Source: a virus
Virus record (IMG/VR): IMGVR_UViG_3300035204_001874
Coordinates: 32,001 to 96,000 of that record
DNA: 64,000 bases
Direction: 5' to 3' (one strand)
Under the pieces are notes generated by a model, which was not told the origin of the DNA, searched no databases, and was given only the letters and a program-made list of their open reading frames with translations. Position numbers and translations under genes: made by a program. Below are positions 21,201-50,837 of this stretch, one piece after another (position 1 is the first letter of the stretch; every line of letters starts with the position of its first letter).

Positions 21201-23696
21201 TGGGCCTGAGACCCCAAGAATAGTTTCTGAATATAAAATTTCGGCTCCGCTAACAGCCAATACGTCAGACAAAGGCGCACTTTGATTAATCGTGTAACTT
21301 GTATCCGAGTTCGTTTTATATAATCTATCTGGATCAATGTTTCCAGTGGGAACGGAATAAAAGGTCCATTTATGTCCAGCGTTTTCTCTATTCCAGCCTG
21401 AAATCTCATAATCTTGAGAGCAATCTCCCATCCCGAAGAATCTATTAGCTGTTAATTTTTGATTATGACGCCCTTCGGTTGGGTGGATTGTTTTTTCATA
21501 TGCGCTATTGTGTATATTGGGGTGTACGTTATTTCCTGTAAGTTGGCCTAAGTTATCTAGCCCTGGTTCATAAAGATAAGTTTCATCGTAGTTATTTGAA
21601 ATTGGGTCTGATTCAAATATAAGGTCCATTTCTCCATTGATGGCCTCAGAAAATCCAGGGTTAGTATATTTTCGGGACATTGGAATATTCCACCCTCCCG
21701 TTTCCATCGTGTGGTAAGGAGGAAGGGTAGGATTATTTATAAATTTCCACATCCACCCCGGAGTAATTGTGAGCGATGCACTTTGCCTATTTGTTTTGTT
21801 GTCTGATACGATTTGTGCGTGAGCAAATGGACCTCCTTCGAAATCATTAGCCCAACCACCCTTGGCGACTTCAGCGTATCTTAGATACGCGGGTTGAGGG
21901 GGGCCAACCGTACCTTTTATGACTCCCGCTGTGGGAACGGTAGCGGCGAAAGCTCTTCTTCCGACGCTCGTGAAATTTATAATTGGGTTAACTTTATGAT
22001 CTTTATATTGTCCGTAAAGCCTCGCTGGATGAAATTCTATGGGAGCTATAGCAAACCCAGTTCTTTCTATTACTGTCGTATCATCCCACCAATAAGCCGC
22101 AGAACCTATATCCTCTTTAAGGATGTGATGCCTTAAGCTCATATCTCGCTCTACCCCCACCGGAAACGCAAGTGGAGCTTGTATTTCGTATTGGTCAGCC
22201 CACTGCCAAGAATAAGGACTCCAAGTTCCCCCGCCATTCTGACATTTTGCTTCGGTTGTAAAATCGCAATGGCCATGCTCTTCACTTCCCGGACCTTCAT
22301 TGTGTGCATGGCTTGCTCCCGCAGCCCAATACCCACCAACATTTTCACAATCTTCTTTGCTTGTTATGGTAAAACCAGCGCATTGTGATGCCCACGTTAG
22401 GCAGTAATTCTTTCCTTCTACTCCGTACCCACACATTCCATACAGGTAATTTCCTTGCGAGTTGTAACAACACCCATGTCTATAAGCATCTCTCCAAGGT
22501 CTCCCGTCTGTTGTTTCGTGATCGTTCACATAGGAGTAAGCTTCAAAGTGAGAGCCATCGGTAACCGTATGCATTAAATTTGAGCCCTCATACCAAGCAG
22601 TCAGCCATGTACCGTCTGCGTGCTTATATGATTCAGCGTTATCAAAGTCCCAGTTATCGCCGTAAAGTGCTCCGATTGGGTAATTTTCTCTTAACCTTTG
22701 CTCTATGTACTCTATAGCTTTTGAGGAATACTGTCCGTACACTGGGGGAGCTTCTACGGTTACCCTACTCAACATGCTTCCGGTAACTGGAGCGATATTG
22801 TAGGATTCATCTATGCATGGATAATCTATTGGTCCGATATTTTTGTACCCAGTTATCTTATCGTCGTCATTCAACACTGGAACGGACACGTCTTCGCAAT
22901 AACGCTCATCTTTCCAGCTAAGGTCTGAATAAACAAATTCTGCTTCAAGTTTGTAGGCTTGAAGCTCGCTATCTTTCATTACTTGGGGATCAAGGTGTCC
23001 ATCGGAAAAGATGTCAGTTAAATCTTCAAAACCAAAAGACGTCATTATCGTCTCCACGGTTCCTTCTGAAGATTGTTCGACTTTAACTTCTTTTAGGACG
23101 TCTTCATAACTTAATTCAGTAAGCGCGACCATGTCTCCAAAAGTCATTTCTACTGATATCCTGTGTTTAAAAGCGAAATACCCAAGCATTCTTTGGTATA
23201 AAAAGAAAACCTCAAAACCGCTTTTCATCCCCTCCATTCCCATCGATAAACCTAATGCTACGGCACACGCAGCAATATCAGTCTTAAGTTCTGAACTGCC
23301 CGAACTTATAACCACCTTTGGTTTAGCGTATTCAACATATTGGTGAAACTTAGATTCGCTATCAAATCCTTCGGCGGCTTGTAATTTTTCTATATTGTCT
23401 TCACCCGAGTCGCTCACTACTGATTCGCCAGCCATACTTTCACTTTTTACAGTTTTGTAACCGCCCCTACCAAGAATGTCCTGAACGGTACTTCCTGCTG
23501 TGGCTCCTGCTGAATCTGACGCCATGCCTAAAATTGCCGCTAATGCTGTTTCCAGCCTTGGAGCAAAATCAGGATTTGGAATATTCTTTACAAAATAACA
23601 AATAACAAAAGAAGAAGATTTCCCCGTAACTCTTATGAAAGTTTTCTCTGGTGAAGTTCGATAAAATTCACTATTATATTTTGTCGGCTTTGACAT
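18222..23696 (-). CDS. Large virion-associated protein (1824 aa), Cys-rich with Thr tracts
   Basis: Long ORF rich in G/T/Y/W/C; carries the C..C..GG.W module shared with the tail genes and poly-Thr tracts. Confidence 0.6.
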   Translation of the reverse strand: MSKPTKYNSEFYRTSPEKTFIRVTGKSSSFVICYFVKNIPNPDFAPRLETALAAILGMASDSAGATAGSTVQDILGRGGYKTVKSESMAGESVVSDSGEDNIEKLQAAEGFDSESKFHQYVEYAKPKVVISSGSSELKTDIAACAVALGLSMGMEGMKSGFEVFFLYQRMLGYFAFKHRISVEMTFGDMVALTELSYEDVLKEVKVEQSSEGTVETIMTSFGFEDLTDIFSDGHLDPQVMKDSELQAYKLEAEFVYSDLSWKDERYCEDVSVPVLNDDDKITGYKNIGPIDYPCIDESYNIAPVTGSMLSRVTVEAPPVYGQYSSKAIEYIEQRLRENYPIGALYGDNWDFDNAESYKHADGTWLTAWYEGSNLMHTVTDGSHFEAYSYVNDHETTDGRPWRDAYRHGCCYNSQGNYLYGMCGYGVEGKNYCLTWASQCAGFTITSKEDCENVGGYWAAGASHAHNEGPGSEEHGHCDFTTEAKCQNGGGTWSPYSWQWADQYEIQAPLAFPVGVERDMSLRHHILKEDIGSAAYWWDDTTVIERTGFAIAPIEFHPARLYGQYKDHKVNPIINFTSVGRRAFAATVPTAGVIKGTVGPPQPAYLRYAEVAKGGWANDFEGGPFAHAQIVSDNKTNRQSASLTITPGWMWKFINNPTLPPYHTMETGGWNIPMSRKYTNPGFSEAINGEMDLIFESDPISNNYDETYLYEPGLDNLGQLTGNNVHPNIHNSAYEKTIHPTEGRHNQKLTANRFFGMGDCSQDYEISGWNRENAGHKWTFYSVPTGNIDPDRLYKTNSDTSYTINQSAPLSDVLAVSGAEILYSETILGVSGPSYWDEFITGYIYTGEEHAGEIVSCMSEWTGYSTTSSKTLNYWWVDPNPPSYFPFSGIENGWHTSRSLASIPNLSRCRALFGTTTTTTAAPTTTAAPTTTTTCDPMDPECGGGGAGGSTTTTTSEDPMMAMCDNPIKVQCPFDCMAGQEGDELEFCNYTQCINGMCSDGSYDNGITPEEWGWAPLYGKQRGENPPRYWRGPFASTRYKFMYPHASGAFAKYYESELKDPEYASLISGFPTKIKFSVKIEEYISKDICSGGYISERGEIVMTHGVKNEEGKYQPVHQKEHAGMSWGNLIDENFSPQSETAEFDNNNDPSSNNTVIEDSTQTRNHSFYDNEVSFCAGNKIGTPDIVQYIGDGPKRATMAFGGYHRFTGYIFDIEATYAKPSFVLEKYGLDYSSIIEALSVQNEGAYNCNIFWDGEMLDTYDPIYFDPMVSDDGTTGIWTKNRYHPTEAKSFTGSMYNEHNIYGDHWMGLRSGCLIAVTGNYDFKGTGFEPLDPQMAQCEDNLLSEKEMYLEEACTNLEGELGIHPGVDPYPQFAEDKVFLFNLSDTGIHMHFRRPVYLDGFEMADGMEMAMYDFGPPNGYGGGDMGLGGCPIYSIPHSISITGTGPIGNKKIELFAKDNDLELEFHKEVIRNEGFLFDAASTGEWSCIANGDGGYDYEKITGHGRMLARGWAATGCVGMDPFGGDMSTTTTTTTCEPGDTECEEGTIPATYVKVSGWREISTIKVTLKDFQPYYETPGELPNDSEFKFVQSGNCSLTGYLSYQNQEEASIFTEGIVLKDVSDDPWFDLIDYPHYASDVLKRGDIVMPNDDKHPVHSAPSKMLTRWNVSTIEGSTVSGGHMLAIKSEAPENYNKYLWPTISDAFHYNGGHMSWESKPKDDGYTYTNTYLMICGEAGQPMDVGENSDHITKRYLITQHWAIYDSLTVDPMINPRYKLKLDKPVGNIGDTIMPKGGYVVPEGTTCWDIKQGLVTGDKQGEEGYKEDSL

Positions 23697-26700: not shown

Positions 26701-29700
26701 CCTTCGCAATCTAGCTTATATCCAAATGTTCCATAACCAACGGTGTACGTGGTGTTACCGTTTACCACGTTCCCCTTTGTTAAAACGTAAGAGCTAGTTT
26801 GATTATTCGCTCCGTTATGCGTTTCTTCTAGGTTTACAGAGCCACTGACCCACAAAGTGGTAACGTCAGGGTTACCTCCAGCGCAAGGGGAGGCGTTATT
26901 CGCGCAATGAGTAAAGGTTCCGTGTAAGCCGATTTCTTCTGGACGGTAATTACAATAAGCTTCTGGGGGCCACTCCGCATCACCTTGAGCAATCGTTCCC
27001 GCTGTTAACATCGCATCTTGATTAATTTTGGGCGTGTTGGGCCATTTGCAGGTGTTAGGATTCCCAGCGTTTTTTAAGAATTGAGCTTCATTACCTTGGT
27101 ATTCGTCTACATGACTTTCAGCAACACTTTCGTAAGGGTGAAACAGGGTACAATCTTTGGTTCCTCTCCCTCCCCTTCCTTCTATGCAAGCCCAATTCCC
27201 CTCTAAGGAAGCTGGTTCTGCGTACTCTAAAACAGACAACATTGCTTTGTTGCCACCTATCGCGTCATCTAATGGGGAGCTTACGTTAGTAAGAGCAGGA
27301 TCATTTGTATCTAACTTACTTTTGTGAATTCTATACCACTGCATGTCTATTGGGTAAAGACTTTGCCCATCGGGGTCTACTAATTTTAAATTGTTTACCC
27401 AAAAGTCAATTTCTGGATATCCCTTACCGACTTTATCCTCTGGTATTGTGTGGTAATCTACAACGTCGCACCGGAACGTCGGGGATTGCCCAATTTTACA
27501 TACAGCATCCAATGGTTGTTGGGTGAAAATCGGAGTAAAGCAGGAAAAATTAGGATCAAGTTTACCTACGCCACCCATTCCTTGAAGCCTCCATGGAGAC
27601 CTTTTTATTGCAGCGTCTTTAATCTTTCCTATTATGCTTGCGCTAATGTTGTAGGATTTACGTGGCAAATCCCCGCCACAATTTACATTATTGTACATGC
27701 CCCCATAGAAAAAGTGATTTGCTCCTGCTTGAAGTTGCACAATGTCTTGTATACCTGTTACTAAATCCTTAGAAGCGTAAACACCTTGGAAGTATCTTCG
27801 TTCTACTTCCGGCATATCATCGACAGTTTGTGCGCTATCAACCGTAGCTCGCCCCCAATGATTGTCATTTAAATAGCCAGTCATATGGTCTACCGCAAAA
27901 GTTATTTGGCTTAGTGGGAATAGATCAGTAGCCATACCTCTGTTGTGGTTTTCTACGTATCTGGTAAGTAGCCTTCTTTCTCTGCTTTCGATGAGCCTTC
28001 TGTAAAAATCTTCATCAGCCTTCCCTGGTACTTCTACCACATAAGAACAAAAGTTTTTCAATATATGATTCCAAGCGTTGATAGCTTTTTCGCCATTGCA
28101 AAAGACGTTATTTCTTCTGTCATCTTGCAGTTCTCGCGTGAATCTTTCATATCTTTCATTTGTGAATAAAATATCGCTTCTATCTGAGTCTATTGAGTAG
28201 GTTAACGGTCCACTTTGAAATAGCTCATCTGGGCCTCCTCCGCCTTTGAACAAAATAAGATCGCTATTCTTCCATTTTCCTAGATTCGCTTTGCAGGTTA
28301 CTTCATCTGTGTATTGAGGAAGCATTTGATTGCTTGCTAGTGACCAACAAGTTCCAACTTCTACGCTTTTTAAAAAGTGCTCTTTTGTTCCGCCAAGATG
28401 ATAATCAAAGTCGTCCTTTAATCTGCTTAACGCTCTTTTAAATCCTTCTGATCCGTCTCCAACAAGGTCTTTTTTCCATTCGTTAGATGCGACTATTAGG
28501 GGCCAATTAGCCCAGATAAAGAAGCCTATATTTCCAGCAAACCACTCGCTTGCTCTTTGTTCGCTTTTAGCTACTTTCAGAAGGGTTCTGTAGTCGTCTT
28601 CAGAGCAGGAAGAGTTTAAAACGGGAGGTTCAATATAAGCGGCAGTTGTGTTGTTGACGCTTCCTGGAGGAATTTCATTCCCGACGCCATCACAACAATT
28701 ACAGTCGGAAATATTCAAAGGCCAATCTCTTGGAATGTCGCCAGCTACTGGTATAACACCTCCAGCGAGAGGTACCCCTGGATTAGGTGATGAAATTTGA
28801 TTTGGTTGATTATCACACGAAAGCTGCCATTTACGCACATTCCATTGTCCTGCCACCCACTGCTCCTTTCTAACATTGCACCAAAACTGAGTTACCCCAG
28901 GTTGCTCGACCCCCTTTACGTAACATCTACCGCCACCAAAACCTTCGCAATTCCACTCAGCGGTAATTTCGTTACCGTGAATATCATTCGTTGGAGTACA
29001 GTAGGAGTGGCAGTCTTCTTGTGGTAGACTGCTATCTCCCCAGCAAGTAGAAGAGGCGTTGGTGCTGCCAGCGGTAGAGCCTATTTCTATATCCCACGCA
29101 TTATTTAAGGCGTCACGTTCCTCTTGGGGGTCAGAATCAGCATTTAAAACATAACATTCCTCATCAATTTTAATAATTTTATATTTGAGATATTGAGTTT
29201 TAGCTTTATTTCGAGCCTCGAATGAAGGACCACTATCAAATTGTTTTTCTACCCTTAGTATTTTCGCAGCATTTCTAGATGTCCAATTGCCCCCGTCAAC
29301 AGCGTTGTTTGGTGGGAAGTTTTTAAATTCGTCAAGTCTCCTATAGTAGTAAAAATGATACGCTAAATCATCCACACCGTCATTGGTTGAACCAGAAAGA
29401 TCAGCGGAGGTTCTTCCGCATTTATTTAAAAATCTAGCCCCGTAAAAACCGAACTTGCCTATTGCAGCATAATAAGGAACATCAAAATATTCATTTGGGC
29501 AAGCGTGTATTGGGGTTGCTGAAGACCAAGGGAGATAATCGATAGTATTTGGGCACTGCCTGTATGTCCAATAATGATTTTGGGTCGCCATCGAAGCACC
29601 CTTGCCTTCCATTCCAACAAATGAAGTTACAAGATTACTTGAGGTGTTTTCCGTTTGGTTAAAGAACTCTTCGTGATTATATCTAAATATGAAATGCCAA

Positions 29701-31025: not shown

Positions 31026-31033
31026 CTTTTCCC

Positions 31034-31061
31034 TTGACTTTTCCTTCTACCCCTGTATAAT
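31034..31061 (+). promoter_or_regulatory. Sigma70-type promoter
   Basis: TTGACT (31034-31039), 16 bp, TATAAT (31056-31061); ATG at 31072. Confidence 0.75.
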
Positions 31062-31067
31062 TACACC
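31055..31067 (-). promoter_or_regulatory. GGTGTAAT motif, candidate phage-sigma (late) promoter
   Basis: GGTGTAATTATAC about 30 nt upstream of ATG 31025, followed by a purine-rich leader. Confidence 0.55.
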
Positions 31068-31071
31068 TATT

Positions 31072-31644
31072 ATGATACAGTTTTATAAGCCTAATGCTAA
31101 AAATATGGGGGCTGCTTGCTCGTTTTGGTATAGCCCGCAAAATAAAGCATTCTTTGCGTCTATCATACGTCAAGCCTCTTGGGATGCTAAAAGCAGAACT
31201 GGTTCTTTTCGAAAAAATAAAGATAATCCACAAAAAAACGTTAAAATTAAATTAAATTTAAATGAAGTTGGTGGAATATTAGACTGTTTAGAGAATTGTA
31301 GAGAATTTGAAGGATATCACAACAGTCCACAGGCGGAACATATTACCAGAATGAAATTCGCCCCCTATATGAAGGAAGGTAACCAATTAGGACATATCTT
31401 TATGGCAACGAAAGAGCCAAAAGATGACCCCTCAGAAAAGGTATCTTTTAGTATAGCTCTAAACTTTGGAGAATCTATCGCTCTCCGTCAGTGCTTGCTA
31501 TTTATGATTGATACCCTATTCTCTGATAAGGTTGCGGAGATTAAAAGTAAAGATAACTCCAAAACTCAGAAATATCAAAAAACCGCCGCCCCCAAAGAGG
31601 AAAAAGCAGCATCTCCAGTTGATATAGATGACATCGTGTTTTAA
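31072..31644 (+). CDS. Whirly/PC4-fold-like single-stranded DNA-binding protein
   Basis: Collinear similarity to the Whirly pattern (FYK..., KLNLNEVGGIL, EFEGYH, MKFAP...GHIF, IALNFGE) and an SSB-like tail DIDDIVF. Confidence 0.65.
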   Translation: MIQFYKPNAKNMGAACSFWYSPQNKAFFASIIRQASWDAKSRTGSFRKNKDNPQKNVKIKLNLNEVGGILDCLENCREFEGYHNSPQAEHITRMKFAPYMKEGNQLGHIFMATKEPKDDPSEKVSFSIALNFGESIALRQCLLFMIDTLFSDKVAEIKSKDNSKTQKYQKTAAPKEEKAASPVDIDDIVF

Positions 31645-33555: not shown

Positions 33556-33556
33556 A

Positions 33557-34746: not shown

Positions 34747-34752
34747 TTCTTC

Positions 34753-39112: not shown

Positions 39113-39113
39113 A

Positions 39114-42100
39114 TTACATAATCCTTGGCCCAATCTTGTTGAGAATAGACTCCATTTCTGGTGGTGCTGGAGGTCTGGTTGCAAATGATAAGTCTGAATT
39201 TAATCCGTCCGCCCCCAGAGAGACCGAATAGCTAGTCAAACCAAATCTTGGGTGAGCAAGCAGTTTAAATTTTGGAAATTCATTTACTGAACCAGCTAAT
39301 TTCATGGTAATTTGCTTCGTTGGCTTAATCACGCTATAATCATCCAAGCCTCTTGCTCCAGCGATTGCGCCACGAGATACGTAATCATGATAGTCTTCAA
39401 CGGTTTTTAGTTCTGATCCGTCAGCGTCAAATATTCTTGTAATAAATGCGTTATTGTGTGGATCAATCATGGATTCCATATCTGGGTCAACAGTATTATT
39501 GATAATCTTTATGCTGGAAGTTGGATTACCGTTTCTATTTAGGGATATGGGCTCTCCATAAATTTCTACTAACTCTGGCCTTCTTTCTTCAATTGAAATT
39601 TTAGCGTTCCAAATGCCGCTGTAACATTGAAAATTCCCAGGGTTGACTGGGCTACCTAAACCGCCTAAGAAAAGCGGGCTTTGAATAACGCCCATGCCAA
39701 ATGCTATTGGTTGCGTCATTGGTTCGGTACCGGGATACCAGCCGTATGGCGCGTACATTTTAAAATTATTTATTGGATAAACAAGATTGTAATCAAAGAC
39801 CGCAGTTGGTAATCTGTCTAAGTCTTCCTCTAGGTCCGCTAGATAATAAAAACCCAAATCATCAGTAGGGGGATACTTAACATTTCGATTCGGATTTCTT
39901 ACTAATCTTATGTTTAAAGCTCTTGAATTGACGTCTCCGGGATGAATAAATGGGCCAAACACAGGGTGAAGCACAGGGAATCCGCCAATAAGATTGCGAT
40001 CAAACCCTTCTTTGTAGACTCCCGTAGGGCTAATGGCGCAACTTCTTGTCGTATCTATTCCAAATGTGTGACCGTAAATGGTAGTGTTACCTTCTTGTTT
40101 TGCTATCGCGTCTTCACAAAATTCAAAATTAATATCATAATCACATCTATCGAAATATTCCTCTTTCGCTTTTCTAAACCCCTCTTGGACCTCCCACTTC
40201 ATCCTTTCAAGTTTTGACATTTTGTTTATAAACCCGTTAGTGCTACGTGGGTGAAAATATATGTTTTCGTGCTTTGTAACATCTGCCACAATCATTACAT
40301 GCATTTTTTTGCATGTCCTTCTGAATTTGCTGTTGATGTCAACTCCAGCGATGGAAATTTCATCAATTAACCTTCCGTTTGCGTATAGGTCTTCAAAGTC
40401 TTCCTCTAAAGCGACCCAAGCTTCGCTAAGATCATCAAAAAATTTAGGTACAAAAGCGTCTAAGTCCCAACTTTGTGTTTTGTAAGGGTACATGTCCTCC
40501 ATGTCTTCTCTAATATTTAGTGAGTTGTTGTATTTGGTACATGCGTTATCCATGAAGACTTCATTGAAGTGTATTTCAAAATCTTCTACGTTAGTTCCCC
40601 ATGGGTTATCCAAATCAGCAAACAGTAAACCTGTTGGTAAAAAGTTACCCGACCTAATTAATACCCCATTAAAGGGGGCGTCAAACGTCTCTAGGCATGT
40701 CGTGCATTGAGCGTACGCTCCCGCAGAAGGAGAAAAAGAATGCTCTAATTTAGGTATAGTTAAACCTCGTAGTTGGTCAAATCCAGCTTCGCCATCTTTG
40801 AATCCGTAAAATTCTCTTGGAAAAAACGGATACCCAGGCAAGGTTCCCTGTATAGCTGCCCCGTGCTTATACATCGAATCCGCACACCTTTGTTCCCAAG
40901 AAACAACGTCTTCGTGTTCTTCGTTTGTATAGTAACCGATAAAAATCTTATAAAATCTTTGATCTAAATTAATGTCTTGGACATCGTTATCGCCTCCTGC
41001 TTGCATAAATTCCGTCATTACGTCAGTCTTGATAACTGGGTCTACCACTTCGGAAATTGGCCAGAAACCAAGAGCCATACAGTTTGCTTCGAAGTCTTTG
41101 CTAATTTCAGCATTCCAAGGTCCACCTCCATGACCATCTACATTTCCGTCAGCGTCATAAATTATTCCCCTTCGTGAAGACATACAATTTTCTACAACTC
41201 TTTGGCCAACATATATGTCTCTAAGTGACCTATTGAATTTCGAAAGAGCGATAGAGTAATCTATGTCCCACAGTTGCCTTTGGGTATACCAAATCCTTTT
41301 TCTTGCTTCGTGCCAAATAGGTATAGCTGGTTCAGCCCACATTCTTGGACCCGTATCTTGGTGAACGTATGGCCTCAAAGCTGAAGTCCAAGGTATTATG
41401 TTTGCGAATCTTTGTTCCGTAAAAAGTTCCCCATACACCGTATGATAATTAGTCATTGAAGTATTTGGAACGGTGAAATCTAAGGGGTGCATTGGCAAAT
41501 ACGGAGTGTATCTCTGTACGTCTTTGCTCTTTTCTCTTTTTTCGAACGGTTTCACGTTACTTGTTATAACTCGTTGAACGTGGGTATTTGCTAAGGAGCT
41601 TGACTCTTTATAAGATATAATTACGGTTTTGCCGTCATCTGTTGCTGCGAATTCTGAACCTGCGACTGTAGTGGGGTCTGCTATATCTTGTATTTGGCTA
41701 AGGTCTGCCCCCTGCTCAAGATCAACGAAACTAATTCTTTCGGCTTCATTATCCCAATAAAAATCTAAAGAGAATGCTCCACACCACTGCTCTAATACTT
41801 CGCGTAACGTTCCGATGTAGGTTTGTCTAAATTTAGGGTTTTTATCAACGTTTCTTGAAATGCCATTAGAGCCGACGTCGGTAGTAGTGTTTATAGACAG
41901 CCCATGAAACTTTAAGCTATAAAGAAGTTCAGTGAAGTTGTAGCTTATATTAGGTAAATCACTGCAAGCTTTGTCAGTAAACTCTTCCGTTCCCAACATT
42001 AGATATCCACCATCAATTGTAAAGCCTGTCGGGTGGCGTGATGCGGGTCCGCCAGCGTTAACTCTTTGTCTAAGATCACGCCAAAATTCTTTTGGAAATA

Positions 42101-43205
42101 AATTCCTCATATTTTCCCATGTCCCTGCGGCATACCAAGTTCCGCCATCGTTTGCACAATCAATAGAATTCCCCGCGACAGCCCCTGAACAGTGATCTTT
42201 TTCGCAAAGGTCTTGGTCTCCGGTAATGCCGGAATCTGGATCACCGCCTCTGCAAAAGTGGTGATTTGAAGGCTCCCAACCTCCTATTAACCCCGCGTTA
42301 GCTAAACGTCTTAGCGGGTGCCAATGTGCGCCAAACGGTATCCCGTTTATTAGGGGATTAGGCATAGGGTAAAGCCCCAAACAATCAACCCAAGGGATAG
42401 CAGAGTTGTAGCAAGCTTTGTCTGTAACAATATCTGGATTTTTAGGGTCGTAATATCTTAAAGAAGATAAATCCGCGACACCTTTTTTGATTTCGTCTAC
42501 GTTATCGCCGTACTTGACGGCGAATGACCCCAAGGCGAGTGATCTAACTACAATTCCTTTTTCTTTATTAAAAAAACTACTTAACTTAGAGCCCCACGGG
42601 CCTAAACCCTCCCCGCCTAACAAATAACAATTTGGACAGTAAGCTTCCATCTCTACTCCTGTCATGCTAAGTTTTATTTCGTCAGAGTTTTTTAAGGGAA
42701 AAGTTGGAAGTCCGGCGGTTCTTCCTTTCGCTGGGCCTTGTCTCTTAATGAGTCCGATATAAATTTTATTTAAAACTAAAGAATAGTCTTTAAATGTCAC
42801 AGCTAAAGTCTTTTGATTAGCCTCTATAGAAATTTCATAATCGTAAAGAAACATCCTTTTTAGCCCCAACCCATGCATATCAATCGTAAAGTAATAACCA
42901 GTTTTTTCTTCACCTAAGTAGTCTACTCCGCCGTTAGCGGTAAGACTTTTCTCTAAGATTTCAGGTTTTATATCGAAAGCTGCGCCAGACTTATTGTAAA
43001 TTTCATCTGAGGAAGCCTCTAATACGATATTAAGGGTTAGCTCGGTAGGTTCTTTGCTGAATCCAAGCTTTAAAGAGCTATTAAATATCCACCCGCCAAA
43101 AGCGTATCCCTTTACCCAATTAGCGTGCTTAAGCAACCCGCTTGCCTTTAGTGCGGGGCTTGGTGTAATTAATATGCCCTGTATGTTTTGGATGAAGTCA
43201 GCCAT
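39114..43205 (-). CDS. Putative tail tip/baseplate hub protein
   Basis: About 1363 aa. GTLREVLEQWCGAFSLDFYWD and a C-terminal beta-rich end resemble hub proteins; lies downstream of the tape measure gene. Confidence 0.55.
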   Translation of the reverse strand: MADFIQNIQGILITPSPALKASGLLKHANWVKGYAFGGWIFNSSLKLGFSKEPTELTLNIVLEASSDEIYNKSGAAFDIKPEILEKSLTANGGVDYLGEEKTGYYFTIDMHGLGLKRMFLYDYEISIEANQKTLAVTFKDYSLVLNKIYIGLIKRQGPAKGRTAGLPTFPLKNSDEIKLSMTGVEMEAYCPNCYLLGGEGLGPWGSKLSSFFNKEKGIVVRSLALGSFAVKYGDNVDEIKKGVADLSSLRYYDPKNPDIVTDKACYNSAIPWVDCLGLYPMPNPLINGIPFGAHWHPLRRLANAGLIGGWEPSNHHFCRGGDPDSGITGDQDLCEKDHCSGAVAGNSIDCANDGGTWYAAGTWENMRNLFPKEFWRDLRQRVNAGGPASRHPTGFTIDGGYLMLGTEEFTDKACSDLPNISYNFTELLYSLKFHGLSINTTTDVGSNGISRNVDKNPKFRQTYIGTLREVLEQWCGAFSLDFYWDNEAERISFVDLEQGADLSQIQDIADPTTVAGSEFAATDDGKTVIISYKESSSLANTHVQRVITSNVKPFEKREKSKDVQRYTPYLPMHPLDFTVPNTSMTNYHTVYGELFTEQRFANIIPWTSALRPYVHQDTGPRMWAEPAIPIWHEARKRIWYTQRQLWDIDYSIALSKFNRSLRDIYVGQRVVENCMSSRRGIIYDADGNVDGHGGGPWNAEISKDFEANCMALGFWPISEVVDPVIKTDVMTEFMQAGGDNDVQDINLDQRFYKIFIGYYTNEEHEDVVSWEQRCADSMYKHGAAIQGTLPGYPFFPREFYGFKDGEAGFDQLRGLTIPKLEHSFSPSAGAYAQCTTCLETFDAPFNGVLIRSGNFLPTGLLFADLDNPWGTNVEDFEIHFNEVFMDNACTKYNNSLNIREDMEDMYPYKTQSWDLDAFVPKFFDDLSEAWVALEEDFEDLYANGRLIDEISIAGVDINSKFRRTCKKMHVMIVADVTKHENIYFHPRSTNGFINKMSKLERMKWEVQEGFRKAKEEYFDRCDYDINFEFCEDAIAKQEGNTTIYGHTFGIDTTRSCAISPTGVYKEGFDRNLIGGFPVLHPVFGPFIHPGDVNSRALNIRLVRNPNRNVKYPPTDDLGFYYLADLEEDLDRLPTAVFDYNLVYPINNFKMYAPYGWYPGTEPMTQPIAFGMGVIQSPLFLGGLGSPVNPGNFQCYSGIWNAKISIEERRPELVEIYGEPISLNRNGNPTSSIKIINNTVDPDMESMIDPHNNAFITRIFDADGSELKTVEDYHDYVSRGAIAGARGLDDYSVIKPTKQITMKLAGSVNEFPKFKLLAHPRFGLTSYSVSLGADGLNSDLSFATRPPAPPEMESILNKIGPRIM

Positions 43206-43207
43206 AA

Positions 43208-45625
43208 TCACTCAATATTTAAAGAATTCGTATCATTATTATAAAATATAAGGGGCGTTTCTTCAAAAATACTGAAGGAATTAGTGAGGCTGCATTCAAG
43301 CCCCCTTCTATAATCGAGCTCTTTTTGTTGCCTAAGACCATTAAGCCAAACTAGCTCAGAAAATCCAGAAATTGGGTCTGATATACCATCAATTGGAGCC
43401 CAAGCTCCACCTGCGGTTACGCAAGCAGATTCAGTTCCATATGTGTTGTTCCAAGTGTTGGTGGGCGTCCAAGTATTGGTGGGTGTCCAAGTTGCGTTAG
43501 CGTTTTCGCAATTTGATTTGTTGTTATAGTTAGTATTGCTACAGGAACCATCGTATTCTAGGCAGGTCGTTTTCGTGGAGTAATTAGTATTGCTACAGCT
43601 ACCGTCAGTTTCGAAACAGGCTACCTCGGTTAAGTGTTGATTGTTACTACAGAAAGGGGCGATAGTGCAATTTTGGATAATCTCTTTAATTATCGAGGGT
43701 TTTTCTCCAGTATTTTGAGGCACGAAACACACTTCGGCGGTAAAAACGTCTTGCGGAACATTAAGGTTATTGACTATGCTGGTTGTCTGGTGACCCCATC
43801 CGGGTAGCCCTTCTCCGAATAATACTAAAGCATCGCCAGTAAACTCTGTCCAAGTTTCGCTTGTCCAAGTCCCAGCGGGGGTTGCTCCTTCGCAAGTTGC
43901 TTTAGTGGTATATTGAGTATCAGAGCAAGTTCCAGCATCTTCGCAATCTGTTTGGATGGAATATTGGCTATCGGAACAATAATCCCCCGTATGAATACCA
44001 GTTATATAACCGTGGTCCACTCCGAATACCAACTTTTGTCCATTTATATATACATCCCTATCGTGAATTGAGGCAAATCCATTTTCTCCCGATATTCCAG
44101 TAATTGTGATGGTGTTGTTTCCTGTTTCTAAAAATTGGGGGCTATCAGGATACCACGTTTGACCAGCACCAACTGCCGCGTTGAATCTGTTTTCCTCCCA
44201 AAGGCCACTAAAATCAATGCATATTGATCTCGCATCAATTAAATCGTAAGTTATGTAAGAGTCTCCAGTTTGAAATCCGCTAAGGAAAAACTCTCCACCT
44301 GTTGGGTGAACAAAGTAATCAAACTCATGAGAGGTGAGGCCCGTAGGGTACGATTTATCTCCAGAGGCTTGATTAAAAGCTCCATGATAATATAGTCTGA
44401 CTTGATTCCCCTGTAGAGATAGTCCTGAACCTGGTATCAGCCCTATGTCGGAACGTAAATCATCAAATGTATGTATTTCTATTTTTTCCCCGCTAATTAG
44501 CCCGTCTCGAAAGTTTAAAAAATATCTACTATATAGCTTTTGTTTTTCTTTATCGTAGTCTATACCACTTGTTATGATGTTGTATCCAGTCGTAAAACCT
44601 GAACCAGTTAGCAGAGCAATTTTTGTCCCAATCTGTATTAGTCCTGTTACTCCAGATTGATATTCTAATGGGAAAGTTCCTACACCCGTAGAAGCGGGAG
44701 TTCCACCGACGAATACGCAATTGCACCCACTGATACTTTCTTCTCCTTGGGAAAGCCCAGTTGCTTTTGTGAAGTAGCCAGTGGCAGTTACATAACCCGT
44801 TATCCCCGTGGTATAAATTGGAGTTTCGATTTTGCCTGTTACATAGGGTGTTGATTCAGTTACCGTTGTCGTTGTCGTGTTAATGCCTTCAGAAAACATG
44901 CAGTCACATTGATTTTTTACATTCCCTCCACCAAAGTCTCCGCTTACCAAGGCTAGGTTACGTATGTGACCTTCGTATCCGGTATATTCCGTATTTTCAT
45001 TACAGTTAAATCCACCGATAAATAAAGCGTTTGAGTCATTAAGTTCGCTTTTGGGCAAGTTCAAAGAATGAATTGAAGCTGAGTGAAGATCGTTATAATA
45101 AATAGATACATTGTTTCTGCCTTGTGTTACTGCTACGACTGAATTTGCATTAACTTCATCAGACAAAGTTTGTATTTGGGCTTGTTGGTTACTGTTATTA
45201 TATTGGATGTATAATCTATTTGATTGATTGATGCCGACGTGAAAACCGGAAGGAGAATCTACAGTTTCCATGGTAGACATCAGAACTCTAGATACGTTAT
45301 TTTCATCCCTGTAATTGCAGAAATCTGGGCTAATGTCCATAACCATTGACCAACCAGAAAACGGGAGAAGAAAACCAACTCTAACCACGTCTTCTCCAGC
45401 GAAATATCCTTCTCCAGTAATGGGCCAATTAGTTTTTCCTACTGACAGTCCAAAAAGTTTATCAATATCGAGATTAGAGCCAACAAAATGATCAGCTACG
45501 CTGTATACTTGATTATAAATGTAGTCATTCTCTCCGCTGTTAAACCCTAAAAACGACTTTACGTTTCCGGTCTCTTCGGAGACCAGTCTTAAGCAATCTA
45601 AATAATCTGAAAATTTAACTGACAT
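43208..45625 (-). CDS. Putative tail protein with LamG/ConA-like lectin domain
   Basis: WSM...FHVGINQSNRLY...LFIGG...YEGHIRNL LamG-like pattern; TG-rich repeats; VYINGQKL and VWLNGLRQ motifs; two nested Cys blocks. Confidence 0.65.
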   Translation of the reverse strand: MSVKFSDYLDCLRLVSEETGNVKSFLGFNSGENDYIYNQVYSVADHFVGSNLDIDKLFGLSVGKTNWPITGEGYFAGEDVVRVGFLLPFSGWSMVMDISPDFCNYRDENNVSRVLMSTMETVDSPSGFHVGINQSNRLYIQYNNSNQQAQIQTLSDEVNANSVVAVTQGRNNVSIYYNDLHSASIHSLNLPKSELNDSNALFIGGFNCNENTEYTGYEGHIRNLALVSGDFGGGNVKNQCDCMFSEGINTTTTTVTESTPYVTGKIETPIYTTGITGYVTATGYFTKATGLSQGEESISGCNCVFVGGTPASTGVGTFPLEYQSGVTGLIQIGTKIALLTGSGFTTGYNIITSGIDYDKEKQKLYSRYFLNFRDGLISGEKIEIHTFDDLRSDIGLIPGSGLSLQGNQVRLYYHGAFNQASGDKSYPTGLTSHEFDYFVHPTGGEFFLSGFQTGDSYITYDLIDARSICIDFSGLWEENRFNAAVGAGQTWYPDSPQFLETGNNTITITGISGENGFASIHDRDVYINGQKLVFGVDHGYITGIHTGDYCSDSQYSIQTDCEDAGTCSDTQYTTKATCEGATPAGTWTSETWTEFTGDALVLFGEGLPGWGHQTTSIVNNLNVPQDVFTAEVCFVPQNTGEKPSIIKEIIQNCTIAPFCSNNQHLTEVACFETDGSCSNTNYSTKTTCLEYDGSCSNTNYNNKSNCENANATWTPTNTWTPTNTWNNTYGTESACVTAGGAWAPIDGISDPISGFSELVWLNGLRQQKELDYRRGLECSLTNSFSIFEETPLIFYNNDTNSLNIE

Positions 45626-45678
45626 ATTTACCATCCAAACTTATAACCTGGGTCTCTTAATTTAACTGACATATTTAC
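45612..45678. repeat. 20-bp direct repeat spanning a gene junction
   Basis: AATTTAACTGACATATTTAC at 45612-45631 and 45659-45678. Confidence 0.9.
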
Positions 45679-48411
45679 ATCAAAAATTTCAAAGGCTACT
45701 TCATCATATACTTCTTTTTGCCAATTTCTAACACCCTTGTTTTGGTCACTAGGGTCGTAAGTGAACTCTTTACTTCGAGACATTGTAAAGATAGATGTAA
45801 AATCACTATCTTCATCGGTGCGCCACGCATTCTTGTGGTCAGAAAAGAGTTGATATTCTACGGCTCTTAGCGTTTCATTTTGTAAATTATATAAAAGGGA
45901 ATGTTCTCCCGCGTCATTGTCTGTCTGTTGGTGACTTGATCTAGCTGTTAATGTTCCATTAATGCTGATTTTGGCTTTAGCTTTAGTTTTGCAATTCAAA
46001 TTTTGAAGCGCGAAAAGACCTTCGACGTTAGCGGAGGGGATTATTTTGTAAGTGTCTATACTTTCGGTTACTTGAACGTTGTATTTTATAGGCGAAGCAT
46101 TCCAATAAGTACGTGTACTGGCTGAGTGCCAATAACGAGTACCCTGCCAATCTTCGGTATCCTCTTGTTTGTGAGGGTAAGCCGAGCTTAATTGGTGATT
46201 TATGGGGTCTGGAGCCCAAGAGTGATGAACCCTGTCTTCGTCTGAAAAGGTTGCGGACAAAGAAAGAGTCCCTAAGCCTGTATTTTCGTTAACTTTTATT
46301 GATGTTATATAGAATCTATTTGGATTAGCGAGAGAAGCTGCTCCTGCTTTATTATCCCAATCATAATCGTAGGTAGTCCAAACTCCTCCGGCGGCAGCGC
46401 ATTCTCCAGCACTATGCATTATGCCCTTTGGGATAGCTACAGAGCATTCCCCATGTCGCCCCCAAGCGTTAGGGTACAGATATTCTGCTTCTAATTCGCT
46501 TGTGAGTATTTCTTTGGTCAAATACGGTTCCCACATTCCCACTTCTTTTCCAACTGTATTTTTAAAATTTTGAAGAGCCGCTCTTTTTTCTGGCAAAGTT
46601 CCCCAAGTCTTAAATTCTCCATCAATGCTCCAAATTGATATGTCAGTTAAACCGTCCGTTGTGACGGAAACCTTGTTGTCAAAATATCCTGCAATCATAT
46701 CTACGTCTTTAATTCCCGTGACATATGAGGCTTTATATGTAAGTGAAGTTGACGCGGGGTCATCTTCCAAAGTGAAAGATGTTCTAAAAATTAATGCTTC
46801 TGGAACGTTTAACGTATCTGAAATATACCGTTGGTCAGACTGAGAAACCTCTAAGTCATCCAACATGGTTTGCCTAACATGGTCTAATTCGAAATTTCTT
46901 TGCGCCTCATCCTCGTACCCGTTGCTCCCTTGGTATCTAAGTTCATATTTTATGGAGTTGTAATCGTTTGTGATGGATTCGTTAAGGTCTAACTTATGAG
47001 TCGTGACTACTGGCACCTTTGTCACGTTTAACCTTGGTCTACCGAACGCTTTATTTTCATATTTGTAATTTTTTGTAACAGAAAAAGTTCCAGCTAATCT
47101 ATCTGAAGCTTCTGAGCTATTAATTAGGACTGCGCTATTCGCGCTTTTAATGAATTCTGGATACGTTGGGGGCGAGCTAGTTATGGCGTGAATACGTTGT
47201 ACAAAATTTACAGCGTTATCATACGCATTGGTGTCTATAGTTTTAATTCCCTTTGCTGACGTTTTACGAACGAGAGAAACTGTTCCATCGTCGTTTTCAG
47301 TAAACGTACTTGAATCTGAAGGCTCGATGACGTTGTAGCCCCCCGCCCTCGAATCTAAAATGTCATAAGCCTTTAGTTTTACAGAATACTTAATAAGTCC
47401 ATTTTCTGACCATTTATCTTCAGGGAAATCGATGCTTTCGATCATTACTGATGGATATGTTAAATAGTCCGCCCCATTATCTACGACTTTAAATTCCTGA
47501 AAATTGACCTTAAAAATATCAACAAAAGCTTGCCAATTCTCTGTTTTGACGTGCGCTCCACCAGCCTTTGCATCGGCCACTAGTTCTGACCTCATGGTAT
47601 CTAATACTGCATTCATGTGATCTATTTGTTCCGTTGTAAACTCATCTGAGCACCAGGAATAGTTCATGTAGTTGTTAATGGGCACAAGGTTCACCCCGTC
47701 GTCAGACAACGGAGGATTAGCGCAATCGTCCCACGTACTCGTATGAGGAGGTGTGTCTGCAAACTGGTCTGGTTGAAATGTATGAAATAGCCCCAGATAA
47801 TGACCTATTTCGTGAACAAGAGTTGCAGGGTCAATATTTGCTCCTCGTGTCTGATAAATGTGAGATGAATTTAATATTACGCCATCAAAGGGATCAGGAT
47901 TGGGGCCATTTGAATTTGCGTCTGGGAAAAAACCCATAGATGCACCACCATGAGCAGGAACAAACCACATATTAAAAAGTTTTGCCTGATTAGTTCCGGG
48001 AAGAATTGAATGAACTGTTCGTTCTACACCTGCATAATCTATCCCATTCGCTACTGTCACACTTGAATAGTCGTTCTGATCCCAAGCTAATTCAAATTTA
48101 ACATTGTTGGCTATAAGTTCAGTATTTGCTGCGTCAAGTAAAGCTTGCAAAAAAGCTTTCGAAACATCCGATCCGCCTGGATTGCTGAGTGAGTGCGCTT
48201 CACCGTTATTCAAAAGATTCCAATGTACATTTATTGTTCTTGTATCAGCTACTTGTTGTATGGTCTTGCTATCGTATTCAGTAAGTGTCCCGTTTAAAGT
48301 GATAGACTCGTTCATCCCCCATCTGTCTCCATAGTCTATAGGGGTTTCACTTCTGGAAACGAAAGGTGTTCCAGGAAGCTCTATTCCATTATAATAAACA
48401 TGCGTAGACAT
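45628..48411 (-). CDS. Putative tail protein with inserted M43 (pappalysin/ulilysin-like) zinc metallopeptidase
   Basis: TLVHEIGHYLGLFHTF, ADTP, Met-turn NNYMNY, FTTEQIDHM. Confidence 0.75.
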   Translation of the reverse strand: MSTHVYYNGIELPGTPFVSRSETPIDYGDRWGMNESITLNGTLTEYDSKTIQQVADTRTINVHWNLLNNGEAHSLSNPGGSDVSKAFLQALLDAANTELIANNVKFELAWDQNDYSSVTVANGIDYAGVERTVHSILPGTNQAKLFNMWFVPAHGGASMGFFPDANSNGPNPDPFDGVILNSSHIYQTRGANIDPATLVHEIGHYLGLFHTFQPDQFADTPPHTSTWDDCANPPLSDDGVNLVPINNYMNYSWCSDEFTTEQIDHMNAVLDTMRSELVADAKAGGAHVKTENWQAFVDIFKVNFQEFKVVDNGADYLTYPSVMIESIDFPEDKWSENGLIKYSVKLKAYDILDSRAGGYNVIEPSDSSTFTENDDGTVSLVRKTSAKGIKTIDTNAYDNAVNFVQRIHAITSSPPTYPEFIKSANSAVLINSSEASDRLAGTFSVTKNYKYENKAFGRPRLNVTKVPVVTTHKLDLNESITNDYNSIKYELRYQGSNGYEDEAQRNFELDHVRQTMLDDLEVSQSDQRYISDTLNVPEALIFRTSFTLEDDPASTSLTYKASYVTGIKDVDMIAGYFDNKVSVTTDGLTDISIWSIDGEFKTWGTLPEKRAALQNFKNTVGKEVGMWEPYLTKEILTSELEAEYLYPNAWGRHGECSVAIPKGIMHSAGECAAAGGVWTTYDYDWDNKAGAASLANPNRFYITSIKVNENTGLGTLSLSATFSDEDRVHHSWAPDPINHQLSSAYPHKQEDTEDWQGTRYWHSASTRTYWNASPIKYNVQVTESIDTYKIIPSANVEGLFALQNLNCKTKAKAKISINGTLTARSSHQQTDNDAGEHSLLYNLQNETLRAVEYQLFSDHKNAWRTDEDSDFTSIFTMSRSKEFTYDPSDQNKGVRNWQKEVYDEVAFEIFDVNMSVKLRDPGYKFGW

Positions 48412-48413
48412 TT

Positions 48414-50837
48414 TTACTCTCTATAGCTTAGATTTCTCGTGAATCTGGGTGATTGCTGTTTGTATCCATAGGTCATTTCTGCGGTTAAAGTAACATTATT
48501 AGTTGAGTCAAATACGTATGATAAATTAGATAGGTGCCCAACGAACCTATGGCCCGCTGCTAACCTTGTATGAGTAAATACACTCAATAGTTGGCGTTTT
48601 GCTTCTCTCGCTAGAGCTTTTAGTTCGTCGATTGGAACATATGGTCCGCCTTCTTCTTCTATTTTATTAAAACTATGCTGCAATACATTCCATCTTTTCC
48701 TTGGTATTATAGCTGAAAGGGCTACGACTCTCTTCCCTAATTCAGTACTGTAACCGAAAGATAGTGCGCTGCTTTTTTCTGGGTTCCCCTGTGGTCCAGT
48801 TTCTCTGTCTACGATAACGTGTTCGGTGAATACGTTTTTAGGCCAAGTATCTGTTATTTTTGATTCAACTTTTTTGAAACAATCTATACACCCCGGTAAG
48901 CTTTTTACGTAGACCGGATCATTCGTCCACTTTTTCTTTAGAGAGAACTCTTTGCCGTGAGTTGATGCTGATATCGTTTTAGATAATTCAGTCCACGTTT
49001 GGTTTGTGCTCCAAGTGGCTTGATCAGGGTGTATAAAAGTTACTGATCCTTCGCCACGATATCTGAAATACGAAGTAAAAATTTCTGAGTGAACTCTAGC
49101 TATACCGTCGTGATCTCCATCTGCGGCAAACCCCCAAATATTCTCTTCAAATGGGAAGTAGATCGGCCAAGTAACAGCGGGAGCGTGACCAACCGCAGAC
49201 ATACCAGGAACAAGCTCATCATAATATATTAATTCATCTATTATGCTTAGGTTATATTTGGAGTCTAGCCTTTGATCAATGTTCAACTTTTTGGGGTCAA
49301 AAAGTTTAAAAGTTAAATTGTAATCTATAGTAGAGACGTTTCTTTCGTCCACATCTAAGGTTATCGTATTTTCGACTGTATAAAATCCTCCCCAATCATT
49401 AATAAGCTTAGGCGCATTTGTAAATGCGGTGGTTATCGTTGCGGAATTGTTTGCCTCATCAATAGCAACAGTTGAGCTTATTGGTAGACGGTTTTCTGTA
49501 TCAATTGCAGGATCAAGAAAATTGAGATATTGAGGAGTAAGTAATCCCGCTCCCGCCGCAGGTAAAGCAAAACCAGCAGCTTTCGAAGCGTAAAATTGTA
49601 ATGTATTTTCGCATCTGTTAACGGCTTCGTTTCTTTCGTTTTGTATCCAGTCAGCAATTGAGTCATCATGACAAGCATAGTGACTATGCATTTCTAAATT
49701 TTCAGTTATTGTAACTATTCCGTTTTCGGCATAATCGATACTGTGTTTTATTTTTGTAGAGTAAGTCTTAGCGAGGTCTATATCTGTTAATATTTTTTGC
49801 TTCCTAGTAAAATTAAATTTATTAGTAAGCCAATCATGAGACTCCGAAAAACGACTATTACCCATCGGGACCATCCCTATGTCGGGCTGCGGTGCGTTAA
49901 AAAGTTTAAATTGATCTACGAATACGATTTGTCCGAGGGCTGCGTAGTCCATTGAGTCAAAAAGTAGATCGGCAATGTTAGCAGCTACCCACTGAGGTAA
50001 TATCGGAGTAAGTCCGGCCTGTCTAGTTTTTTTGTGATCACGAGAATCAGCTACGAATTCTCTCATGGTGCTGTCATTTATATCAACCGTACGAGCTTCT
50101 ACATCCACGGTATGAGTTAGAGTTTTAATATGATTCTCATCTTCATCTATGGTTACACTTTCAGTTAACGAATTAATCCATTTTGCGTATGTCTGAAAAA
50201 TTTCTTCGAGTTTGGCGTAATTGGTTGGCCACGCGCCCGCTGTGGCTGGATCAAGCTCGGTGTGTTGTCCGTTTTTCCAAGTTCCCCCTGCTGTCGTGCA
50301 AGCTCCAGCGTTGCCTTGTGGCGCGGGAGTCCAAAGGTTCGGGGTCCAAGTTCCAGCAGCAGCTTCACAGTCAATCACATTGTCGAATGGGCCAAGCCCC
50401 ACACCCAAGTTGCCACATTGACTCGTGTCTGTCTCGCAGCCGTCTTGATCATCGTTAAAGGCCGCGTTGAAACAAGTTCCATCGGGTGCGTCAAGGCAGT
50501 ATCCTTCCCATAACACGTCGTCAGGTATACGCTTCCTAACTTCTACGGTAACCTTATATTTACCTACGCGAATCAATTCTTCTTTTGGGTCGGGAGAGTT
50601 GGGAAGTTCAATTGATTTTACTTCTATGTCTGCTTTGTCTACAGCTAATTTTGCTGCTATTTGATTTTTAACAAAGAGACTAAGGGTTTCGTTGCCGGGC
50701 ACAGCATTCTCCAAATCAGTAATGTAAGTTTCATAAGTGATAGTCTCCACATTCCTGTAGTTAAAGGCTTCCCCAAAGTATTCCCTTTTTAAAGAATACC
50801 CCAATAACCCATCAAGTACTTCATTACCTATTGCCAT
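48414..50837 (-). CDS. Putative tail protein
   Basis: 807-aa beta-rich ORF directly downstream of the tape measure gene; nested Cys module. Confidence 0.6.
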   Translation of the reverse strand: MAIGNEVLDGLLGYSLKREYFGEAFNYRNVETITYETYITDLENAVPGNETLSLFVKNQIAAKLAVDKADIEVKSIELPNSPDPKEELIRVGKYKVTVEVRKRIPDDVLWEGYCLDAPDGTCFNAAFNDDQDGCETDTSQCGNLGVGLGPFDNVIDCEAAAGTWTPNLWTPAPQGNAGACTTAGGTWKNGQHTELDPATAGAWPTNYAKLEEIFQTYAKWINSLTESVTIDEDENHIKTLTHTVDVEARTVDINDSTMREFVADSRDHKKTRQAGLTPILPQWVAANIADLLFDSMDYAALGQIVFVDQFKLFNAPQPDIGMVPMGNSRFSESHDWLTNKFNFTRKQKILTDIDLAKTYSTKIKHSIDYAENGIVTITENLEMHSHYACHDDSIADWIQNERNEAVNRCENTLQFYASKAAGFALPAAGAGLLTPQYLNFLDPAIDTENRLPISSTVAIDEANNSATITTAFTNAPKLINDWGGFYTVENTITLDVDERNVSTIDYNLTFKLFDPKKLNIDQRLDSKYNLSIIDELIYYDELVPGMSAVGHAPAVTWPIYFPFEENIWGFAADGDHDGIARVHSEIFTSYFRYRGEGSVTFIHPDQATWSTNQTWTELSKTISASTHGKEFSLKKKWTNDPVYVKSLPGCIDCFKKVESKITDTWPKNVFTEHVIVDRETGPQGNPEKSSALSFGYSTELGKRVVALSAIIPRKRWNVLQHSFNKIEEEGGPYVPIDELKALAREAKRQLLSVFTHTRLAAGHRFVGHLSNLSYVFDSTNNVTLTAEMTYGYKQQSPRFTRNLSYRE

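Follow-up and report, generated by a model that had tools for sequence, protein, structure and literature searches.

We analyzed a 64,000-nucleotide stretch of viral DNA (positions 32,001 to 96,000 of IMG/VR record IMGVR_UViG_3300035204_001874; hereafter the window), a phage-like contig with a G+C content of about 39-47%. Several of its very large minus-strand open reading frames (ORFs), named here A to I, encode a recurring module of two cysteines followed by a tryptophan. Almost all protein repeats run head to tail. In the blocks of the window, copies of the module enclose further copies like pairs of brackets, and close relatives differ in how many levels they carry. Taken as a whole, the data are probably best explained by a self-contained micro-domain of about 20 residues that nests in the tips of host hairpins and in itself. 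The positions of the blocks and of the carrier genes are listed in Table 1.

The initial annotation had placed a C-x(7-16)-C-x(4-8)-W module at nine ranges in seven genes. All nine lie in frame (offset 0) in the minus-strand ORFs A, B and D to H and encode the peptides that it quoted; one of them, at 28272-28349 in B, has 17 residues between the cysteines, outside the stated loop length. Proteins A to I were then read with a recursive parser in which a unit is C-x(4-17)-C-x(2-9)-W and a child unit may stand either in the tail before the tryptophan or in the loop between the cysteines. Nests were returned at depth 2 in D, E and the first block of F, at depth 3 in H and the first block of B, and at depth 4 in the second block of F. 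In this last block, three C-x10-C openers are followed by the closers ATW, TPTNTW and TPTNTW, and the outer unit is closed by C-VTAGGAW. The claim that the multi-copy blocks are nested and not tandem therefore stands for these six; the block in A is ambiguous, since it holds two single units followed by two spare closers, SPYSW and QW.

Shuffling the residues 300 times produced an average of 0.04 depth-2 blocks per shuffle and no block of depth 3 or more. A six-frame parse of the window reached depth 2 or more at six places only, which have the same coordinates as the six blocks. Together, these controls rule out chance and composition as the source of the nests. An origin in DNA palindromes was also rejected, as the four block regions scanned contain only one 14-nucleotide (nt) inverted pair.

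Single units behave differently in these controls. A loose single-unit regular expression finds five to eight matches in every frame of the window, and the real proteins hold 6 single units vs 4.75 in shuffles. This counts against the lone copies, and those in B, C and G are therefore not taken as established. A hidden Markov model (HMM) of the unit was trained on 12 units taken exclusively from proteins outside the window. Its 14 domain matches in the blocks of F, D, H, A, E and G all outrank the first off-target match (independent E value, i-E, 8.9). Twelve of them have an i-E below 1 (4e-8 to 0.89, for the blocks of F, D, H and E and for one unit of A, at 0.023), and those in G (2.2) and in the second unit of A (7.9) are marginal. 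The model is silent on the blocks of B and on a candidate unit in C, although their spacing fits. The candidate in C is absent from the ranges first listed and, by pattern only, would make C a possible eighth carrier gene. We thus consider the nested blocks well established; the lone copies of B, C and G count as candidates only.

The consensus of 77 distinct C-x10-C units reads C-S-D-[TPS]-Q-Y-T-T-[QKE]-[AT]-[TDA]-C-E-A-A-G-x-T-W-T-P. S, T, N, D and Q abound in the loops of the units, and the C and W positions do not vary among paralogues that share 24-56% identity.

The strongest evidence for nesting comes from depth differences between orthologues. In the alignments that the initial annotation had proposed, the blocks appear as indels of variable nesting depth at fixed loops in H, D, E and F, and as presence or absence in B. 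In the alignment of H (5 sequences), the block has depth 3 in the window, P0001 and P0002, is reduced to one C-x10-C-ATAGGTW in P0004 and is missing from P0003. At the first site of D (13 sequences), depth 2 is found in six sequences, depth 1 in three and depth 0 in two; P0156 carries a six-Cys variant, and the region is absent from P0161. A second site in D is empty in 11 of the 13 and reaches depth 3 in P0160 and P0121. The site in E (36 sequences) has depth 2 in the window and in an identical copy and depth 3 in P0175; P0165 and P0168 carry other Cys-rich inserts there, and most of the others nothing. In the 70-sequence alignment of F, site 1 has depth 2 in the window and depth 1 in P0005, P0008 and P0011, and 64 of 68 relatives have just a short loop devoid of Cys there. 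Site 2 of F has depth 4 in the window and in P0006, depth 3 in P0009, and a unit-free loop of 7-18 residues in 66 of 69 relatives. A third site (site 0) holds a unit in P0005, P0008 and P0011 only. Both blocks of B are missing at their site in the B relatives of contigs L005 and L006 (38-40% identity). Wherever depth differs between orthologues, the numbers of openers and closers shift equally, as between P0009 and the window at F site 2. This pattern suggests that lineages gain and lose whole levels quickly.

Two further observations concern the first site of D. Cysteines C341 and C397, which flank the block (window 38000-38170), are invariant in all 11 aligned orthologues, including those without a unit, and may act as a staple of the host protein at the foot of the loop. 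In P0156 (residues ~323-370), the inner unit carries an extra Cys pair (CadsnCttqptCvgngageC), so that the unit can be elaborated as well as nested.

Carriers beyond the window were collected by a full HMMER scan with F as bait, which gave 147 relatives, some of them matching through the blocks only. Fifteen nested blocks were found in 151 further proteins (nine of depth 2, four of depth 3, one of depth 4 and one, in P0150, of depth 5), vs 0.14 in shuffles. Over all sequences, 20 of 30 distinct runs of at least two openers are exactly balanced by closers, in keeping with the balance that the initial annotation expected in homologues, and most of the ten exceptions have an explanation. Five are D orthologues in which a host Trp was counted; in another, Phe replaces the innermost Trp; a further one is a Cys-rich stretch with no relation to the unit, and one is a loop-type nest that balances overall. 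The remaining two (P0149 and L003) have genuinely surplus Trp.

The unit is also found in other arrangements. Tandem plain single units occur in P0138 and P0133, which indicates that the unit can stand alone. P0138 (419 residues, metagenomic) resembles the T5 distal tail protein (Dit) pb9 over its N-terminal 140 residues (E 0.0086); the remainder consists of eight or more plain units in tandem, with Trp missing from the last one. In H, F site 2, P0125, P0129 and P0150, a whole nest lies inside the C-C loop of an outer unit. Units are also found at fresh host loops: at site 0 of F in the three relatives named above, at residue 58 in P0006, and at three sites in the D relative of L006. The deepest nest seen is in the IMG/VR contig L013 (IMGVR_UViG_3300020478_000003), where residues ~830-1003 of an ORF hold seven openers in a row and then at least seven short W closers; residues 513-630 of the same ORF hold a second nest, with a larger insert at its tip. 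A strict junction pattern, CE..GTCSD.QY, matched two loci in IMG/VR, one of them L013. In a collection with one genome per species, the same pattern gave one match, in the span of the gene before Nitrosomonas IF-2; the product of that gene lacks the motif, and the match was discarded as chance. A look-alike search of the ESM Atlas with the tandem array gave nothing useful.

P0125 (1751 residues) and P0149 (2002 residues) end in a type IX secretion system (T9SS) sorting domain that scores above curated cut-offs; Bacteroidota-type secreted proteins thus carry blocks of three to four levels. P0130 combines collagen repeats, two depth-2 blocks and a trypsin-like domain. Judging from the sorting domains, the module is not phage-specific and is also present in T9SS-sorted bacterial proteins. 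We read as the common theme of the carriers that they are exposed, either extracellular or on the virion surface.

Structure prediction agrees with part of the stacked stalk that the initial annotation proposed. AlphaFold2 modeled the whole of F (70 sequences) with a predicted local distance difference test (pLDDT) score of 81.0 and a predicted template modeling (pTM) score of 0.75. Block 1, with a pLDDT of 74-79, is flanked by host strands 543-553 and 595-606. The inner unit of block 2 (pLDDT ~80) consists of a strand (692-698), a helix (706-711) and a strand (716-724). A separate model of block 1 (F 545-603, 59 residues) was built on an alignment of 11 paralogous depth-2 blocks and reached a pLDDT of 81.9, with 87-91 in the core and all five models between 80.4 and 81.9. 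Its elements follow each other as strand Y-C1, helix QTDC2ED, strand G-T-C1', helix KATC2'EG, strand W-T-S and strand W-T. This predicted order fits an out-and-back ribbon in which the ends of the inner unit pair together and the ends of the outer unit pair together. At depth 2, the models are thus ordered and not tandem. A straight stalk beyond depth 2 is unsupported, because the outer levels of the depth-4 block have a pLDDT below 50. Searches with the depth-2 model gave no fold match with Foldseek against the PDB (best E 0.98), no chain with Z of at least 2 among 48,161 with VIA-align (0 of 12 in a second look), and a best E of 2.1 in BFVD; as the model has only 59 residues, these null results are weak evidence of a new fold.

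Orthologue depths from 0 to 4 at a single loop, the tandem singles and the predicted order of elements are three independent lines in support of the idea, put forward in the initial annotation, of a mini-domain with adjacent ends that enters loops, including its own. The unit would comprise a strand with the first Cys, a loop of 5-6 residues with a conserved aromatic, a helix of one to two turns with the second Cys, a Gly-rich turn, and a strand with the Trp that would pair back on the first. The two Cys would form a disulfide tying helix to strand, and the Trp would cap it. With its N and C ends adjacent, such a unit could drop into the tip of a host beta-hairpin without disturbing the host. 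A further unit would be accepted at two apparently permissive points, the turn that immediately precedes the Trp and, some 5-7 residues past the first Cys, the C-C loop. Arrays would then be brackets within brackets, the outward limb holding n openers and the return limb an equal number of short T-x-x-T-W closers, and the finger would lengthen at its far end. Such fingers may be stiff, exposed projections on phage tail-tip proteins and T9SS cargo, and could set reach or provide weak adhesion to surfaces or glycans. In phages, they would be cross-linked only when the virion meets oxidizing water.

Several points weigh against this reading, besides the low pLDDT of the outer depth-4 levels. Strand pairing, disulfide geometry and Trp packing are deduced from the order of elements in models. 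The rigidity of the fingers is likewise conjectural, their function is a guess from context, and the virion location of A and B is putative. Phage tails assemble in the reducing cytoplasm, and a loop of phage T4 gp8 that resembles the unit (see below) is kept in a phage of E. coli, so that the disulfide may not be needed for folding. The opener copies are identical at 29-34 of 51-57 nt (~55-63%) and thus old, which leaves no insertion that could be observed in progress. Because F served as the bait, F-like blocks are overrepresented among the homologues. Finally, the balance is imperfect: P0149 has five W for three openers and L003 four for three, and in P0121 the innermost W is replaced by F.

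The age of the copies bears directly on the most serious competitor, according to which the same shape has another history: a two-limbed ribbon would have been lengthened by separate slippage of its limbs (opener ~54 nt, closer 15-18 nt), with selection keeping the limbs matched and no insertion of unit into unit. At 55-63% nt identity, the copies of the window are too old to decide between insertion and slippage. The T-x-x-T-W closer (5-6 residues) is longer than the two-residue T-W that it replaces, so that the junctions are not a clean paste of unit into unit; openers at F site 2 repeat at 54 nt and closers at 18 nt; and the unbalanced P0149 and L003 look like extra closer copies. At the same site, two closers are identical at 16 of 18 nt and the neighboring openers at only 34 of 54, and a recent paired duplication there holds only partly. 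Limb slippage does not, however, explain the nests inside C-C loops, and the units at fresh host loops need movement of whole units. For these reasons we consider slippage unlikely, though it is the alternative to which we give most weight.

Metal binding and disorder are less likely still. If the Cys bound zinc or iron, adjacent levels could share a four-Cys site across the C-x5-C junction; assembly of virions in a reducing cytoplasm would suit such a site, and the junctions do put the second Cys 5-6 residues from the first Cys of the next unit. Against this, the common single units have two Cys only and no conserved His, Asp or further Cys, Cys are always gained or lost as within-unit pairs, and the module also occurs in T9SS-exported proteins. 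The units, with two Cys 10 residues apart, also lack the four ligands and C-x2-C pairs of zinc ribbons and zinc knuckles. We therefore hold metal binding to be improbable. To the view that the blocks are flexible, low-complexity linkers rich in Ser, Thr and Asn, with a C/W pattern that is a by-product of composition or of DNA repeats and has no fold, we give even less credence. The composition of the loops, the low pLDDT of the outer depth-4 levels and the lack of a PDB fold match would agree with it. Yet shuffles never reach depth 3, C and W are invariant among diverged paralogues, the depth-2 core is predicted with high confidence, no inverted DNA repeats underlie the pattern, and the copies share too little nt identity.

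The nesting micro-domain thus remains the reading we prefer. A broader proposal goes with it and is tentative, a little short of even in our judgment: that this is a natural, recursively nestable, cross-linked block of 20 residues, the smallest self-hosting domain known, by which finger length is set level by level (from 0 to at least 7 levels seen) for reach or adhesion in host recognition, on the tail tips of marine phages and on Bacteroidota T9SS proteins. Under this proposal, the block would also lend itself to the design of stalks whose length can be programmed.

Table 1. Large ORFs of the window and the blocks or candidate units that they carry (aa, amino acids).
Feature	Position in window	Strand	Size or residues	Description
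ORF A	18222-23696	minus	1824 aa	37 Cys
Block in A	22206..22403	minus	aa 432-497	singles at aa 439-457 and 477-492, 19 residues apart; nesting ambiguous
ORF B	23724-31025	minus	2433 aa	60 Cys
Candidate in B	28272..28349	minus	aa 893-918	candidate single C-x17-C-KANLGKW, pattern only
Block in B	28827..29045	minus	aa 661-733	divergent depth 3; loops of 10, 16 and 14 residues
ORF C		minus	427 aa	
Candidate in C	36096..36170	minus	aa 261-285	candidate single C-x16-C-RNFGGFW, pattern only
ORF D	36953-39184	minus	743 aa	
Block in D	38024..38146	minus	aa 347-387	depth 2, between host Cys C341 and C397
ORF E	39114-43211	minus	1365 aa	
Block in E	42117..42254	minus	aa 320-365	depth 2, long first loop of 15 residues
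ORF F	43208-45634	minus	808 aa	
Block 2 in F	43400..43669	minus	aa 656-745	depth 4; outer unit split in C-C loop by 3-deep nest
Block 1 in F	43850..43978	minus	aa 553-595	depth 2, tip of host beta hairpin
ORF G	45628-48411	minus	927 aa	
Candidate in G	46378..46446	minus	aa 656-678	candidate single C-x14-C-AAAGGVW; unit HMM i-E 2.2
ORF H	48414-50837	minus	807 aa	
Block in H	50277..50498	minus	aa 114-187	depth 3; outer unit split in C-C loop by 2-deep nest
ORF I	50859-63929, runs off window	minus	at least 4356 aa	zero Cys

From 18222 on, the minus strand is occupied by the very large ORFs A to I, interrupted by four plus-strand genes (31006-35460). The five large genes H, G, F, E and D (36953..50837, minus strand) lie directly downstream of the giant ORF I, and the gene order of the window recurs in the related contigs L004, L005 and L006. 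From this position after ORF I, we read the H-G-F-E-D run as putative tail-tip genes; should ORF I encode a tape measure protein, H to C would all be tail-tip genes. ORF I, free of Cys beside the Cys-rich A and B, has no Pfam match, and none of the proteins A to I has a PHROG match. A PDB sequence search with E, F and H gave no match naming a tail protein. A tblastn search for F in GenBank phages and a peptide-pattern search of IMG/VR for sequences closely related to F and H gave nothing useful. Among the relatives of E, one source name is a TARA ocean scaffold.

Protein F has an N-terminal ConA-like lectin domain followed by beta-rich domains whose loops bear the blocks. Its residues ~100-230 form a ConA-like/Laminin_G_3 jelly roll (Laminin_G_3 E 6.6e-4, below the Pfam cut-off) that is kept in more than 100 relatives of about 600 residues and is likely a sugar-binding part of the tail tip. 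Foldseek with the whole of F found jelly-roll folds only, with a TM score below 0.2 relative to the query, among them chains of the botulinum neurotoxin binding domain and CBM40; we read these matches as the generic ConA-like lectin domain at the N-terminus of F and nothing more.

Other features of the window were noted. Residues 141-273 of G match Peptidase_M43, a pappalysin-type zinc metallopeptidase (Pfam E 4e-12), with mirolysin (E 1.1e-5) and ulilysin as nearest solved relatives; this domain may be a virion-borne protease. Near its C-terminus (residues ~2290-2340, window 23724-24200), B has a hydrophobic stretch rich in Gly, Ala and Val that by eye resembles a membrane-spanning or fusion-type segment. 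The plus-strand genes of positions 1-18218 include those for a GDP-mannose dehydratase, FkbM-type methyltransferases, glycosyltransferases and a SET-domain protein (3294-4463), together with RecA-like, DnaB helicase, primase, PD-(D/E)XK nuclease and DnaE-type polymerase proteins. Sugar genes are found at 1273-8190 and 31645-34726 (GDP-mannose 4,6-dehydratase, two FkbM, and GT1-, GT9-, GT17- and GT41-like glycosyltransferases), and some of them sit between large structural-like genes; modification of virion or host glycans is possible. Three separate genes make up the DnaE-type polymerase: one with the PHP domain (13410-14795), one for an RNase T-like exonuclease (14995-15642) and one for the polymerase body (15609-18218). 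The relatives of the polymerase among GenBank phages are all distant (<30% identity).

If the predicted fold is true, the module would provide a minimal model for a domain that tolerates self-insertion. It would also explain hypervariable loops in tail-tip proteins of poorly known marine phages and flag an unannotated element of phage and bacterial surface proteins that domain databases have missed. These databases probably cannot model nests well, because profile HMMs describe linear and not nested grammars.

The initial annotation had allowed that the unit might belong to an already described family. No curated family covers any block of A to H (Pfam at E up to 0.01, PHROGs at 0.001, NCBIfam at 0.1) or of eight other carriers (E up to 1), and no PDB fold matches the blocks. 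A literature search of full main texts found no description of a Cys-Cys-Trp nesting module. Searching PDB sequences with a depth-2 profile gave one match, the designed disulfide mini-protein HB1.6928.2.3 (5VLI chain C, CIEQSFTTLFACQTAAEIW; E 0.37). It shares the C-x10-C-x6-W spacing of the unit. The protein is artificial, and coincidence is the most likely reason for the match.

The closest natural likeness to a single unit is found in T4 gp8, a phage tail-tip protein (baseplate wedge), as several of the carriers may be too. In gene 8 as read from NC_000866, C142-SIASLTDKDE-C153-LKLGGK-W160-TP fits C-x10-C-x6-W-T-P and agrees with about half of the consensus positions. An hhalign comparison aligns the unit profile exactly to gp8 139-165 (P 0.0012, probability 19.6%), and C142, C153, G157, G158 and W160 are invariant in five orthologues of 43-68% identity. 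The gp8 copy differs in being single, un-nested and fixed among these orthologues, its statistical support is weak, and hmmsearch of the PDB with the unit profile does not list it. We regard the loop as a good lead to the real geometry of the unit, short of proven homology. The crystal structure of gp8 is listed as PDB 1N7Z (Table 1 of PMC3004832), and the basic geometry is thus open to a direct check; the sections of this T4 tail review covered here do not mention the loop as a module or a disulfide.

Accessory elements of other kinds share some features of the blocks. Phages carry Ig-like accessory domains of about 80-100 residues, tandem or terminal, on tail and head proteins, where they are thought to provide weak surface adhesion. 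Like the blocks, these are lineage-specific, exposed add-ons that are gained and lost quickly; family searches of the window proteins and the eight carriers found no Ig-type family in the blocks. The ultralong third complementarity-determining region of the bovine antibody heavy chain (CDR H3) has a stalk and one terminal disulfide-rich knob. This knob is mentioned in the part of PMC10213618 covered here. Ultralong CDR H3 resembles the blocks as an out-and-back beta-ribbon projection of variable length with small disulfide-rich elements, but it is a single stalk with one knob and no recursive stack, and has no sequence relation to them.

The nearest parallel for the architecture itself is Si3 of the cyanobacterial RNA polymerase beta-prime subunit, in which sandwich-barrel hybrid motif (HABAS) domains are recursively inserted; in the portions of PMC11515920 and PMC13114784 covered here, six nested levels are reported in Prochlorococcus rpoC2, with a lineage-specific depth. 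As in the window blocks, copies of one domain family have been repeatedly inserted into one another. The domains of Si3, in contrast, are full-sized beta domains, some of them domain-swapped, in one conserved cytoplasmic enzyme, whereas the window module has about 20 residues with two Cys and a Trp, sits in many unrelated extracellular or virion proteins and loops, and varies in depth between close orthologues. The suggestion that such nesting was undescribed thus holds for the module and not for the principle: recursive insertion within one family is already in print for Si3, and what is new is the 20-residue scale, the chemistry of Cys and Trp, the occurrence in many unrelated exposed proteins and the speed with which the module turns over between orthologues.

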